A stretch of DNA of 58,190 bases from Escherichia coli (GTDB lineage: Bacteria > Pseudomonadota > Gammaproteobacteria > Enterobacterales > Enterobacteriaceae), in the NCBI RefSeq assembly GCF_003334255.1, contig NZ_QOWU01000031.1; one strand, written 5' to 3'. Position 1 is the stretch's first letter, and every line of letters begins with the position of its first letter. A program made the position numbers and the translations under genes. This document shows, piece after piece, positions 1 to 58,092 of this stretch. The notes under the pieces are model-generated. The model ran no database searches. It saw only the letters and a list, made by a program, of their open reading frames with translations, and was not told the origin of the DNA.

Positions 1-1
1 G

Positions 2-898
2 TGGCTTGCGCAGTGCGGGCTGACGGTGGAGCAACTGGCCAGACAGGTGGAGCCGGAATACACACCGGCGCGAAAAGCTCATCTTTATCACTGCGACCAC
101 CGGGGACTGCCGCTGGCGCTTATCAGCGAAGACGGCAATACGGCGTGGAGCGCGGAATATGATGAATGGGGCAACCAGCTTAATGAGGAGAACCCGCATC
201 ATGTGTATCAGCCGTACCGTCTGCCAGGGCAGCAGCATGATGAGGAATCAGGGCTGTACTATAACCGTCACCGGTACTACGATCCGTTGCAGGGGCGGTA
301 TATTACTCAGGACCCGATGGGGTTGAAAGGGGGATGGAATTTATATCAGTATCCTTTAAATCCACTACAACAAATTGACCCTATGGGATTATTGCAGACT
401 TGGGATGATGCCAGATCTGGAGCATGTACGGGGGGAGTTTGTGGTGTTCTTTCACGTATAATAGGACCAAGTAAATTTGATAGTACTGCAGATGCTGCGT
501 TAGATGCTTTGAAAGAAACGCAGAATAGATCTCTATGTAATGATATGGAATACTCTGGTATTGTCTGTAAAGATACTAATGGAAAATATTTTGCATCTAA
601 GGCAGAAACTGATAATTTAAGAAAGGAGTCATATCCTCTGAAAAGAAAATGTCCCACAGGTACAGATAGAGTTGCTGCTTATCATACTCACGGTGCAGAT
701 AGTCATGGCGATTATGTTGATGAATTTTTTTCAAGTAGCGATAAAAATCTTGTAAGAAGTAAAGATAATAATCTTGAAGCATTTTATCTCGCAACACCTG
801 ATGGACGATTTGAGGCGCTTAATAATAAAGGAGAATATATTTTTATCAGAAATAGTGTCCCGGGATTGAGTTCAGTATGCATACCGTATCATGATTAA
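2..898 (+). CDS. rhsD: Rhs family protein, 3' portion (5' end upstream of window): conserved Rhs core terminus followed by a variable C-terminal toxin domain
   Basis: Reading frame is open from the window start. Translation contains the Rhs core-end signature (YDEWGNQ...[16 protein letters not shown]...YPLNP...DPMGL) followed by an AT-rich, low-complexity-free tail of about 165 aa. Position next to ybbC/mnmH matches rhsD by K-12 synteny (from memory). Confidence 0.85.
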
Positions 899-937
899 TT
901 TTAGTGCTTTTATTAGTAGGGCCTATAAGGAGATTCA

Positions 938-1306
938 ATGAAATATAGTTCAATATTTTCGATGCTTTCATTTTTTATACTATTTGCCTGTAATGAGACA
1001 GCTGTTTACGGTTCTGATGAAAACATTATTTTTATGAGGTATGTGGAAAAATTACATTTAGATAAATACTCTGTTAAAAATACGGTAAAAACTGAAACAA
1101 TGGCGATACAATTAGCTGAAATATATGTTAGGTATCGCTATGGCGAACGGATTGCAGAAGAAGAAAAACCATATTTAATTACGGAACTACCAGATAGTTG
1201 GGTTGTTGAGGGAGCAAAGTTACCTTATGAAGTTGCGGGTGGTGTATTTATTATAGAAATTAATAAGAAAAATGGATGTGTTTTGAATTTCCTACATAGT
1301 AAATAA
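938..1306 (+). CDS. ybbC: Putative Rhs-CT immunity protein, 122 aa, predicted lipoprotein (signal peptide with L-F-A-C lipobox)
   Basis: 122-aa ORF immediately downstream of the Rhs toxin domain, AT-rich. N-terminus [18 protein letters not shown] has a hydrophobic core and lipobox cysteine. Length and position match K-12 ybbC. Confidence 0.75.
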
Positions 1307-2016
1307 TGCTGGCGCTGATGGATGCGGATGGAAACATTGCGTGGAGCGGGGAGTATGATGAGTGGGGCAACCAGCTGAATGAAGAGAACCCGCATCACCT
1401 GCACCAGCCGTACCGGCTGCCGGGGCAGCAGTATGATAAGGAGTCGGGGCTGTACTACAACCGGAACCGGTACTACGATCCGTTGCAGGGGCGGTATATC
1501 ACTCAGGACCCGATAGGGCTGGAGGGGGGATGGAGTCTGTATGCGTATCCGCTGAATCCGGTGAATGGTATTGATCCATTAGGGTTAAGTCCCGCAGATG
1601 TAGCGCTAATAAGAAGAAAAGATCAACTAAACCATCAAAGAGCATGGGATATATTATCTGATACTTATGAAGATATGAAGAGATTAAATTTAGGTGGGAC
1701 TGATCAATTTTTCCATTGTATGGCATTTTGTCGAGTGTCTAAATTAAATGACGCTGGTGTTAGCCGATCGGCGAAAGGGCTGGGTTATGAAAAAGAGATT
1801 AGAGATTACGGGTTAAATCTGTTCGGTATGTACGGCAGAAAAGTAAAGCTATCCCATTCTGAAATGATTGAAGATAATAAAAAAGACTTGGCTGTAAATG
1901 ACCATGGGTTGACATGTCCATCAACAACAGATTGCTCAGATAGATGTAGTGATTATATTAATCCAGAGCATAAAAAAACGATAAAGGCTTTACAAGATGC
2001 TGGCTATCTCAAGTAA
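1306..2016 (+). CDS. ylbH: Orphan Rhs C-terminal module: about 80 aa of Rhs core-end homology followed by a distinct toxin-like domain; may be silent or pseudogenic
   Basis: Begins at a TAATG stop/start overlap with ybbC. The N-terminal 80 aa repeat the Rhs core end ([11 protein letters not shown]...DPIGL...DPLGL), then an unrelated AT-rich tail follows. This is the classic orphan rhs-CT arrangement. Confidence 0.7.
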
Positions 2017-2233
2017 TCTATCAAAGATGATAATATTTATTTTTGCTATTATAATCATTGTTGTTTTATGCGTAATTACTTATCTTTATTTATACAAAGA
2101 TGAATCTCTTGTAAGTAAACATTACATAAACTATATGGCAATACCAGAAAATGATGGAGTTTTTACATGGCTCCCAGATTTTTTTTCCGCACGTAGCGGT
2201 GGATATATCAATATACACAAATGTAGAAGATGA
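1997..2233 (+). CDS. ybbD: Small membrane protein, candidate immunity protein for the orphan Rhs-CT (more likely start at the internal Met near 2027)
   Basis: ORF directly after the orphan toxin module, with one strongly hydrophobic N-terminal helix ([23 protein letters not shown]). AT-rich. Gene name is by position only. Confidence 0.4.
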
Positions 2234-3002
2234 TTATTTTTTTCTTATTTTTCCCTAACAAATGATGATGGGGGTAGGTTTAAGAAAACATTGACAGTGA
2301 GGGCCAGGGAACAAGTGGCGAAAATCGTATCAAAGAATGATCCAGATACAAAAAAAGTGTGGTGTAAATATGGTAAGATACCAGGGCAAGGGGATGGTGT
2401 AAACCTTTTTTTTGTTGGTGAAATTAATGTTACGCATTATTTTATAACAAATATTGGAGCTGGATTGCCTGATGCTTGTGCAGAGTAATTGCTTGAATTA
2501 AGAGTCTATCCCATATCGAAGTCGTCAACTTCGTAGTGAGGAAAAGTAAAATTCCTGACTGAGAAAAGACATGTCGGCTATTGTGTAAAGCCATATAGCT
2601 CAGACGATGAATATCTACTCGTATTCAGTTGTTTATTGAGGGTGAGTTCCGACCCTGAAACAACAAATAAAATGAACAGTCAGAGAGTTTACATAGAATT
2701 GCACTGGTCTTTTACGATATCTGACATTGTGTAATACATATTCAGCCATGCATTAATTAAAATGTTACGTGTTTAATGTGAGTCCCTATCTGAAAATAAA
2801 TAATCCTTCCGGATTAAAATAAATTCTTGCCGGGAAAGAAAGAGGAAATAAACCATTAGCGGAAAACCAGCGGCACGCCAGGGTGACATGCCCCAGTACG
2901 GCGGCCCGATAGTCCAGGGTTCAGCGGGGGTACTGATAGTCGCGCCGACTGCATCGAGAACTCCATACAACTTTTTACGGAACGTCACCTGATAAAATTT
3001 GT

Positions 3003-3410
3003 TCAGTATCGTCTTTTGAGATTCTCAAGGTTATGGAGTAACCAGACAGAACGGACACCACTGTCGGAGATAAAAACCCCCTGTTTACGCAGCTCGTTGC
3101 TGGCCCGGTGCTGACCATGTGTCGGGAAAGCGACGGCGTAATCAACAACAGCCTGTTCAGTTGCCTCATCGGTACGGTTCTTAAGGTTAGGAGCGCGGCG
3201 ACTACGATTAATCTGCGCATCCACACCGCCTTCAGCGACCAGTTCGCGGTAACGATAAAACGTATCACGCGAAACGCCCATGATTTTACAGGCTTTTGAT
3301 ACGTTGCTGAGTTCTTCAGCCAGATTGAGCAAACCGGCTTTGTGTTTGATGACGGGATTGGCAGTATGAAGCATGAGAGTTACCTCTTGTTTTGGATAAG
3401 GATTCGACAC
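3003..3410 (-). pseudogene. ylbG: Transposase-like N-terminal (HTH) fragment, truncated; catalytic domain absent
   Basis: 135-aa ORF with an HTH-like segment (ACKIMGVSRDTFYRYRELVAEGG) typical of IS transposase N-termini. It ends without any DDE/integrase domain, and the downstream frames are broken. Position between the Rhs island and mnmH matches the K-12 ylbG pseudogene (from memory). Confidence 0.5.
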
Positions 3411-3489
3411 TCATATCAAAACCGGTAACTCTCAACCTTTCAAGGCCATGTGTCAGATCAAGTCGCGACTAATACAAATACGTCCCTCA

Positions 3490-4599
<1,110 letters not shown>

Positions 4600-16391: not shown

Positions 16392-16550
16392 CCCTTACCT
16401 TTAAAGCGGATGCGATTTATATCGCATAAGAGTGCAGTACTCATGCCGGATGCGGCATGAGTACCATATCCTTCCTGAAAATCGCGCAAATTCTATATAT
16501 TGCAGAGATCATGTAGGCCTGATAAGCGAAGCGCATCAGGCAATGTTACA

Positions 16551-16576
16551 AAAAAAGCCACGGTATAAACCGTGGC
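16551..16576 (-). terminator. Rho-independent terminator of the allD-allC-allE operon
   Basis: On the minus strand: hairpin GCCACGGT-TTAT-ACCGTGGC followed by TTTTTT, about 45 nt downstream of the allE stop. Confidence 0.65.
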
Positions 16577-16618
16577 AAAATCCAACATAGCTAAAAATAA
16601 TCAGGCGAGTGGTATGAC

Positions 16619-57496: not shown

Positions 57497-57840
57497 TTAT
57501 GTTGGCGTTTTCTATTCAGTATAGAAGTCGGAGCGGCTGGGCGAGATGCGGAAGTTCTGGAATGTTTCTTTTTTTTGGTGATGGTGAACTGATGGTGCCT
57601 GAAGCAATTTGGCTACTTTTGCAATGTGACAAGTTATGGCAGTGCTGACTGGTGGCGAAGAATTTTGACGATTGAGTCATGCAGAAAAAAACGGGTTCAG
57701 CTTCAGTTGATTAAATGAGGAGTGAGAAGTCCGAAACAGGACTCACTGTATAAATAAACAGCTATTTTGTTGAGGAAGGGTAAGATAACGGCGGGTGCCT
57801 GAAGCTTTCCGGTTTCAGGTTTACTCTGAGGTCTGGAAAG

Positions 57841-58092
57841 ATGAAGCCCCAGGAGATATTTCTATCAACCCTGGGGCTGCCACTCCAAACCCGAACAATT
57901 TGGATGGTAGTCCCTTCTTCGCATGGAGGCAATATAAACATGCTGACGAAATATGCCCTTGCGGCAGTCATAGTGCTGTGTTTAACGGTGCTGGGATTTA
58001 CGCTTCTGGTCGGAGACTCGCTGTGTGAGTTTACGGTGAAGGAACGTAATATTGAGTTTAAGGCTGTTCTCGCTTACGAACCGAAGAAGTAG
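57841..58092 (+). CDS. mokE: mok-type overlapping leader frame of the hokE locus (modulator of killing)
   Basis: 83-aa frame that contains the whole hokE frame at its 3' end, which is the arrangement of hok/mok loci. Confidence 0.5.
57940..58092 (+). CDS. hokE: Hok-family type I toxin, 50-aa membrane peptide
   Basis: [50 protein letters not shown]: one TM helix plus the conserved Hok C-terminal region with Cys. Located next to ybdK as in K-12. Confidence 0.9.

Follow-up and report, generated by a model that had tools for sequence, protein, structure and literature searches.

This report concerns the 3′ end of rhsD and the adjoining gene ybbC, which lie at the start of a 58,190-nucleotide stretch of an Escherichia coli genome (contig NZ_QOWU01000031.1; the whole stretch is called the window below). 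Positions 1 to 3500 of the window are 99.9 to 100% identical to E. coli genomes including that of K-12 MG1655, and the locus was assigned on this basis to the annotated rhsD-ybbC pair. The frame that is open from nucleotide (nt) 2 to the stop codon at 896 to 898 is the 3′ end of rhsD; ybbC, annotated as a member of the YbbC/YhhH family, follows at 938 to 1306 (122 amino acids, stop codon included in the coordinates). All features of the two genes described here lie on the + strand. In the matching genomes the annotated order is rhsD, ybbC, a truncated "RHS repeat-associated core" pseudogene, small hypothetical genes, ylbG, mnmH, allS, and allA, with ybbP as the upstream neighbor of rhsD. Of 5426 complete E. 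coli genomes, 1855 contain the 915-bp module of toxin tip and ybbC at 99% identity or more, in nearly every case as a single, chromosomal copy. rhsD-ybbC is a long-annotated, already known toxin/immunity module of textbook E. coli K-12 and offers nothing new as a gene find; what is added here is an argument that tips of its family, Tox-JAB-2, act in the cell envelope.

The rhsD frame is divided by its composition. In sliding windows, the guanine-plus-cytosine (GC) content falls from values of 0.55-0.63 over nt 1 to 300 to values of 0.31-0.37 over nt 450 to 900, and the GC content at third codon positions (GC3) changes from 0.66 (nt 2 to 331) to 0.18 (nt 332 to 895). The GC3 of ybbC is 0.21, compared with 0.58 in the neighboring housekeeping gene mnmH. 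Two DPMGL core-end motifs are present, at nt 311 to 325 and 377 to 391. In an alignment with an orphan Rhs fragment located further downstream (1306 to 2016), nucleotide identity is high until approximately nt 335 and decays beyond it, the YPLNP...DPxGL residues being retained past this divergence at the DNA level. Because DNA homology to the orphan copy fades at about nt 335, the exchanged cassette is taken to begin some 20 codons ahead of the cleavage motif. Positions 2 to 391 make up the 3′-terminal part of the rhsD core (RHS-associated core domain), as judged from translation, motifs, and identity, with the Pfam match to the RHS core just upstream in full-length RhsD; its last 20 or so codons (332 to 391) are AT-rich and form the zone of the recombination or compositional breakpoint, as seen from GC3 and the orphan-copy alignment. 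Full-length RhsD has the RHS repeats and RHS core of an Rhs shell, with a PxxxxDPxGL motif directly before the tip, and the GC3 shift and the end of orphan-copy homology at about nt 335 to 391 are those of a tip of foreign composition swapped between paralogues at the core end. The first-pass annotation of this DNA, made from the sequence alone, had placed a GC-rich Rhs frame turning AT-rich, with an exchanged polymorphic tip and the gene behind it, at 330 to 1306; the coordinates are accurate, the change in composition near nt 332 was confirmed, and the exchange is supported by the composition break together with the orphan-copy alignment. The tail of 165 codons that it described is real, but the tip after DPMGL comprises 168 amino acids. 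By analogy with the solved Rhs/TcC shell structures, on which the inference of such cleavage sites rests, autoproteolytic release of the tip is predicted to occur after the leucine encoded at 389 to 391.

The tip itself (392 to 898 by translation; 168 amino acids plus stop codon, RhsD residues 1259 to 1426) contains six cysteines; in the tip numbering used here, residue 1 is the last leucine of DPMGL. A Pfam search identified the domain DUF4329 (PF14220), i.e., Tox-JAB-2, at 491 to 850 with an E value of 1.1e-37 over model positions 2 to 114 of 116. The JAMM/MPN+ signature E...H[ST]H...SxxD is complete and extends from 548 to 742, with E54 at 548 to 550, H99-T100-H101 at 683 to 691, S115 at 731 to 733, and D118 at 740 to 742. 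An exhaustive search of 1.84 billion representative proteins returned 254 relatives of the tip at E values of 1e-3 or lower; it was this search that supplied the diversity, a word-indexed protein search having yielded close E. coli relatives only. In 118 aligned DUF4329 domains, E54 and D118 are conserved throughout, H99 and H101 in 117, S115 in 116, and T100 in 106. Three DUF4329 members, or nine at a weaker cut-off, are also matched by the Pfam family Prok-JAB.

AlphaFold2 was used to model the tip, with a mean predicted local distance difference test (pLDDT) of 92.7 and a predicted template modeling score (pTM) of 0.87. The tip is confidently predicted to adopt the JAB/MPN fold, a deaminase-like α+β architecture. 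Comparison of the model with JAMM structures gave figures of 8.3 for BRCC36, 7.8 for AfJAMM, 7.4 for PfJAMM1, 7.0 each for RadC and Rpn11, 6.9 for Cap3, and 6.4 for BilC, and the Foldseek match to JAMM/MPN+ structures was weak (best E = 0.03). At the sequence level the tip is 9 to 18% identical to RadC and to the JAMM/MPN+ metalloproteases (AfJAMM, Rpn11, BRCC36, AMSH, Cap3 of CBASS, and BilC), from which it differs by a spacer of 13 residues rather than approximately 7 between HxH and SxxD, by additional N-terminal helices, and by its cysteine pairs. Searches of PDB chain sequences with the tip, with YbbC, and with a 70-sequence tip profile returned nothing meaningful (the best hit was zinc-finger noise at an E value of about 0.5), NCBIfam contains no model matching either protein, and PHROGs offered only one unannotated family for the tip. 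Motif and model together suggest that the tip is a zinc hydrolase of the JAMM type. The first-pass statement that the tail has no assignable motif is thereby superseded, and the family is one that is named and has Imm-NTF2-2 as its known partner, yet is biochemically uncharacterized. The tail thus does not belong to a well-characterized toxin family with another partner, the outcome that would have spoken against the first-pass reading.

JAMM enzymes act as peptidases or isopeptidases, releasing peptidases are frequent in polymorphic toxins (Zhang et al. 2012), and a Salmonella PAAR-Rhs-DUF4329 protein is longer, with 1593 amino acids; all three points would suit a DUF4329 domain that is a processing peptidase and not itself the toxin. 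We consider this highly improbable. In RhsD, DUF4329 is the only module past the DPMGL cleavage site and reaches nearly to the stop codon; it has a dedicated, tightly linked immunity family, and none of 123 representatives shows a fusion of it to another toxin domain.

The start codon of ybbC is preceded by the Shine-Dalgarno sequence AAGGAG (927 to 932, read from the sequence) at a spacing of 5 nt. Because of this strong ribosome-binding site, nt 938 is regarded as the true start of the gene and the signal peptide as translated. The internal Met33 (codon at 1034) was rejected as a start, no comparable ribosome-binding site being present there and diverged homologues keeping hydrophobic N termini. 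The predicted lipoprotein signal peptide (938 to 991) features K2, a hydrophobic core (hydropathy 2.55), and the lipobox L-F-A-C, with Cys18 at 989 to 991 and Asn at position +2. Phe at lipobox position −2 is uncommon, and Asn at +2 predicts sorting to the outer membrane under the +2 rule. The PROSITE PS00013-type pattern is satisfied, with Cys18 within the first 35 residues. The remainder of the protein is dominated by the Imm-NTF2-2 core (PF15631; 1100 to 1303, residues 55 to 122, Pfam E = 6.8e-26), in which a long helix packs on a four-stranded sheet. In the YbbC model, residues 1 to 25 form a lone low-confidence helix, as expected for a signal peptide, and residues from about 50 to 120 are modeled with confidence (block-mean pLDDT of approximately 78 to 95). 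Y68 and W88 are invariant in a 13-sequence alignment that includes distant members. The nearest folds are the PepSY domains of YpeB and FoxB (8.2) and of YpmB (7.3), followed by periplasmic NTF2-like domains of the DotI/VirB8 type (6 to 7), the propeptides of M36 and M4 metalloproteases (6.7 and 6.0), cystatins and latexin (near 5.5), and Cmi, the colicin M immunity protein of the periplasm (5.1). The core is compatible with the label "NTF2 fold," yet it falls short of a full NTF2 cone in size and is better described as cystatin/PepSY/NTF2-like. As judged from the model, it most resembles extracytoplasmic protease-inhibitor modules.

The pairing of these two families has a precedent. Zhang et al. 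2012 (PMC3482391, Biol Direct 7:18) described DUF4329 as the Tox-JAB-2 clade with the motif E, H[ST]H, S, D and named "Imm-NTF2 family 2," then known from E. coli only, as its immunity partner; they favored a nuclease role for Tox-JAB-2 and did not mention an export signal on Imm-NTF2-2. Since exactly these two families were paired, the rhsD tip/ybbC pair was already described in silico in 2012. RhsD-YbbC is a founding member of the pair and agrees with it in Pfam families, motif, Rhs carrier, and adjacency, with no structural difference. The 122-residue downstream protein with an LFAC lipobox that had been put forward at first pass as a candidate immunity protein is thus YbbC, of the Imm-NTF2-2 family paired in silico with Tox-JAB-2, and both the Cys18 pattern and the AAGGAG ribosome-binding site uphold the description. 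ybbC lies 39 nt 3′ of the tip gene and belongs to the family expected as partner of DUF4329. An Imm-NTF2-2 gene directly after a Tox-JAB-2 tip was found in the window and at loci L002, L010, L014, and L017. Extending the earlier description as confined to E. coli, the pair also occurs in metagenomes from freshwater and soil (L002, L010, L014), and the downstream proteins commonly bear export signals.

The closest relatives form a second pair in E. coli, of the YhhH type. Its tips are approximately 52% identical to the RhsD tip and share the six-cysteine pattern; its immunity proteins are approximately 50 to 56% identical to YbbC over the core, and the immunity gene lies immediately after the DUF4329 tip gene or overlaps it (L017). 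Unlike YbbC, the YhhH-type proteins have no lipobox and carry a signal of the Sec/signal peptidase I type (KK, a hydrophobic core, and TWA|Q or GWA|N), so that they are predicted to be soluble periplasmic proteins where YbbC is predicted to be lipid anchored. Lipoboxes or lipobox-like signals occur in YbbC variants, in E. albertii P0147, and in the soil locus L014 (an E. albertii relative of YbbC has the N terminus MRFLFIIFSISSC), and Sec-type signals are found instead in the YhhH-type proteins and in L002. Going by these N-terminal patterns, export is conserved among YbbC relatives, and lipidation is not. More remote is Tox-JAB-1/Imm65 of Bacteroidetes Rhs toxins, a sister JAB-fold clade that is likewise carried on Rhs and whose partner Imm65 is a lipoprotein with signal peptide and lipobox; it differs in its motif (NxxxE, HxH, S, D), in the unrelated fold of the immunity protein, and in phylum. 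Tae/Tai, Tse1/Tsi1, and colicin M/Cmi are periplasm-acting systems with exported immunity proteins and proven peptidoglycan or lipid II substrates; their toxin folds are unrelated to that of the RhsD tip, and most are not Rhs borne.

Some further relatives are recorded here as separate observations. Three short contigs (L005, L006, and L007) encode tips with 100% (L005) or 52% (L006, L007) identity to that of RhsD; the contigs are E. coli-like, although they were found in metagenome-assembled genome bins labeled Alistipes, Lachnospiraceae, and Flavobacterium psychrophilum. They were all that a search of genome contigs with a narrow alignment returned, and they were left out of the survey of distant loci. 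In the 607-residue protein P0148, an LRR_5 region is fused to an RHS core plus a tip identical to that of RhsD. These four cases are probably binning contamination or chimeric assemblies and not real transfer. In one E. coli assembly (L016, 752 to 4559), a yhhH-type immunity gene near the contig start is followed by genes for a HEAT_2 protein, an unannotated 153-amino-acid protein, and an Imm57 protein; this may be a poly-immunity array, and any upstream toxin would fall beyond the contig end.

Evidence on where the toxin acts came from comparison of the downstream genes. A distant sample of 11 metagenomic DUF4329 Rhs loci was picked blind to the gene that follows the tip. Eight of the 10 clear loci have an export signal on the downstream protein: L002 (Imm-NTF2-2, Sec type), L004, L008 (DUF6794), L011, L012 (lipobox), L013, L014 (Imm-NTF2-2, lipobox), and L015 (signal anchor). 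The downstream proteins of L009 and L010 have none, and the eleventh locus, L003, has a doubtful downstream open reading frame (ORF). With a signal background of 25%, the binomial probability of 8 or more out of 10 is 4e-4. The exported proteins belong to at least five families without detectable relationship. The partners in L004/L011 and in L015 were considered as Imm-NTF2-2 members and rejected, as hhalign detected no membership, and they were counted as separate families for this reason. Because the exported partners span at least five unrelated families, the pattern follows the toxin rather than a single immunity lineage. According to Zhang et al. 2012 (PMC3482391), the great majority of immunity proteins are cytoplasmic, and the only lipoprotein they singled out was Imm65, the partner of Tox-JAB-1. 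A cytoplasmic immunity protein would be expected for an RNase with a cytoplasmic target, but YbbC, the YhhH-type proteins, and 8 of the 10 distant partners carry export signals. The periplasm- or membrane-acting toxin hinted at in the first-pass annotation gains support from the same three sets of proteins.

Two features of the DUF4329 domains themselves point in the same direction. Members of the enterobacterial clade have five to seven cysteines (six in RhsD), of which C13, C18, C50, C60, and C88 are invariant in a five-sequence alignment. Across the family, Cys88 is present in all 52 sequences with Cys60, compared with 14 of 55 with Tyr60 (Fisher P = 1e-19, uncorrected for phylogeny). This is what disulfides formed in an oxidizing compartment would look like in an alignment. 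In addition, short standalone DUF4329 proteins with a signal peptide or lipobox were found (P0210, P0217, P0231, P0269), and secreted phage and giant-virus versions were described by Zhang et al. 2012 (PMC3482391).

These observations bear on the published view of DUF4329 as a cytoplasm-acting nuclease or RNase, under which exported YbbC would intercept the tip in the periplasm before it crosses the inner membrane, or the N-terminal segment of YbbC would be no working signal. Several type VI secretion system (T6SS) papers label DUF4329 an RNase, and the analogy with RadC suggests a nuclease. The label, however, derives from a bioinformatic class, and no DUF4329 RNase assay could be traced in the literature. 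Three papers call DUF4329 an RNase with the wording "putative" or "potentially associated," citing Ma et al. 2017, and a passage in a review of that study gives Rhs-CT5 to CT8 as "putative RNase," naming only CT1, CT3, and CT5 as tested. A literature search turned up no assay for Tox-JAB-1 or Tox-JAB-2, the two JAB toxin clades. At least five unrelated exported downstream families are hard to square with a cytoplasmic target, an oxidizing compartment would suit both the co-varying cysteine pair and the standalone homologues that are secreted, and the ribosome-binding site supports translation of the YbbC signal. An exported immunity protein is a poor fit to an RNA target. We regard a cytoplasmic nuclease as rather unlikely and, on this comparative sequence evidence, the RNase label as probably wrong.

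On balance we favor, with some reserve, the reading in which the Rhs tip Tox-JAB-2/DUF4329 and its Imm-NTF2-2 partner YbbC constitute a periplasmic zinc hydrolase and the exported protein that blocks it. The tip would be released from the Rhs shell by cleavage after DPMGL, as in the solved shells, and delivered into the periplasm of a neighboring cell, where it would fold, probably with formation of disulfides, and may, as a Zn2+-dependent amidase or peptidase, hydrolyze a substrate in the envelope. YbbC would be exported and lipid anchored at Cys18, facing the periplasm, and its cystatin/PepSY-like core would bind the incoming tip directly and thereby block it. More tentatively, and with slightly less than even confidence, we propose for Tox-JAB-2/DUF4329 as a whole that these toxins could be the first JAMM enzymes outside the cytoplasm: periplasmic zinc amidases or isopeptidases that cleave an envelope component, such as a stem-peptide bond of peptidoglycan or the link between Lpp and peptidoglycan, held in check by exported cystatin/PepSY-like inhibitors, and mislabeled as RNases. 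The case for envelope action of Tox-JAB-2 tips is a comparative one.

Several points weigh against a periplasmic hydrolase. The export signals were called from hydropathy and sequence pattern only, and 2 of the 10 distant loci (L009, L010) have signal-less downstream proteins. L010 is the clearest exception: its immunity gene (2099 to 2329) begins 15 nt downstream of a DUF4329 Rhs tip with a single cysteine and encodes a signal-less Imm-NTF2-2 protein of 76 amino acids without an in-frame upstream extension, presumably a core-only, cytoplasmic version. A Salmonella study reported neither signal peptides nor transmembrane segments on immunity genes next to DUF4329 Rhs proteins. A periplasmic immunity protein might also intercept a toxin on its way to the cytoplasm. 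To our knowledge, every characterized JAMM enzyme is intracellular; known members act inside cells on ubiquitin-like conjugates, whereas the RhsD tip appears to act outside the cytoplasm. In a Pfam census of 123 full-length DUF4329 relatives, no fusion to a cell-wall-binding domain was found, and the fusion partners were delivery modules only (RHS, YD shell, PAAR, Tox-PAAR-like, and DUF6531); because wall-binding fusions are absent from the family, there is no pointer to the substrate. The searchable literature yielded no biochemical or toxicity data for the RhsD tip. Finally, full-length RhsD has DUF6531 but matches PAAR only weakly and in part (E = 0.28), no vgrG gene is among its neighbors, and K-12 has, as far as we know, no T6SS, so that delivery of RhsD from this genome is doubtful.

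The delivery problem leads to a further explanation, that the module is an inert relic in this genome, with frames intact but not expressed or not deliverable. Besides the weak PAAR match, the missing T6SS of K-12, and the fact that neither vgrG nor any T6SS gene adjoins rhsD, the flanking of the locus by a displaced orphan tip and an insertion sequence fragment would fit such a relic. So would the viability of ybbC transposon mutants (PMC8767339). Both reading frames and all catalytic residues are intact, however, the module is retained almost unchanged in the 1855 genomes mentioned above, and ybbC insertions do have a fitness phenotype. Specifically, in TraDIS-Xpress experiments (PMC8767339) they were among the most depleted under trimethoprim, with log-fold values of approximately −1.4 to −2.1, and the table that lists ybbC also contains ldcA, a gene of peptidoglycan recycling. 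A toxin that acts in the periplasm and is enclosed in its shell would likewise predict viable immunity mutants; a silent locus and a shell-enclosed toxin with its target outside the producer's cytoplasm are both compatible with viability. We therefore hold an inert relic to be less probable than a functional periplasmic module, though it deserves more weight than the cytoplasmic nuclease.

The question matters since DUF4329 is being annotated as an RNase without traceable data, and this annotation is now spreading through T6SS papers. It is open to simple genetics in E. coli, the best-studied bacterium, in which two such paralogous pairs are present. If envelope action of Tox-JAB-2 tips is true, a new enzymatic class would be added to the periplasm-acting antibacterial effectors, and JAMM chemistry would extend beyond ubiquitin-like systems.

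Downstream of ybbC, and beginning at its stop codon, the window contains a second, displaced Rhs cassette (1306 to 2233). It consists of 94 GC-rich core-end codons (NCBIfam RHS_core, E = 2e-50) with DPIGL/DPLGL motifs and an AT-rich tip of 142 amino acids that differs from the RhsD tip and has as its sole Pfam match a weak hit to Serum amyloid A (E = 1.3e-3). A 78-amino-acid ORF with a hydrophobic segment (1997 to 2233) overlaps this tip and partially matches NCBIfam PRK14710 models; the cassette looks like an orphan toxin/immunity pair. On the − strand, a 135-amino-acid ORF at 3003 to 3410 is equivalent to ylbG, for which the annotation gives a helix-turn-helix pseudogene truncated at the C terminus, and has the look of an N-terminal transposase fragment. 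Together with a jump in GC content near 2800, it marks the right-hand border of the AT-rich Rhs island before mnmH. Elsewhere in the window, and bearing no relation to the toxin locus, matches to the small RNAs STnc480 and ES036 lie side by side at 16478 to 16612, a match to the sok antitoxin RNA (84 bits) lies at 57793 to 57948, and a tRNA-Arg(TCT) gene is located at 36254 to 36330; it is of the argU type, a classic prophage integration site.

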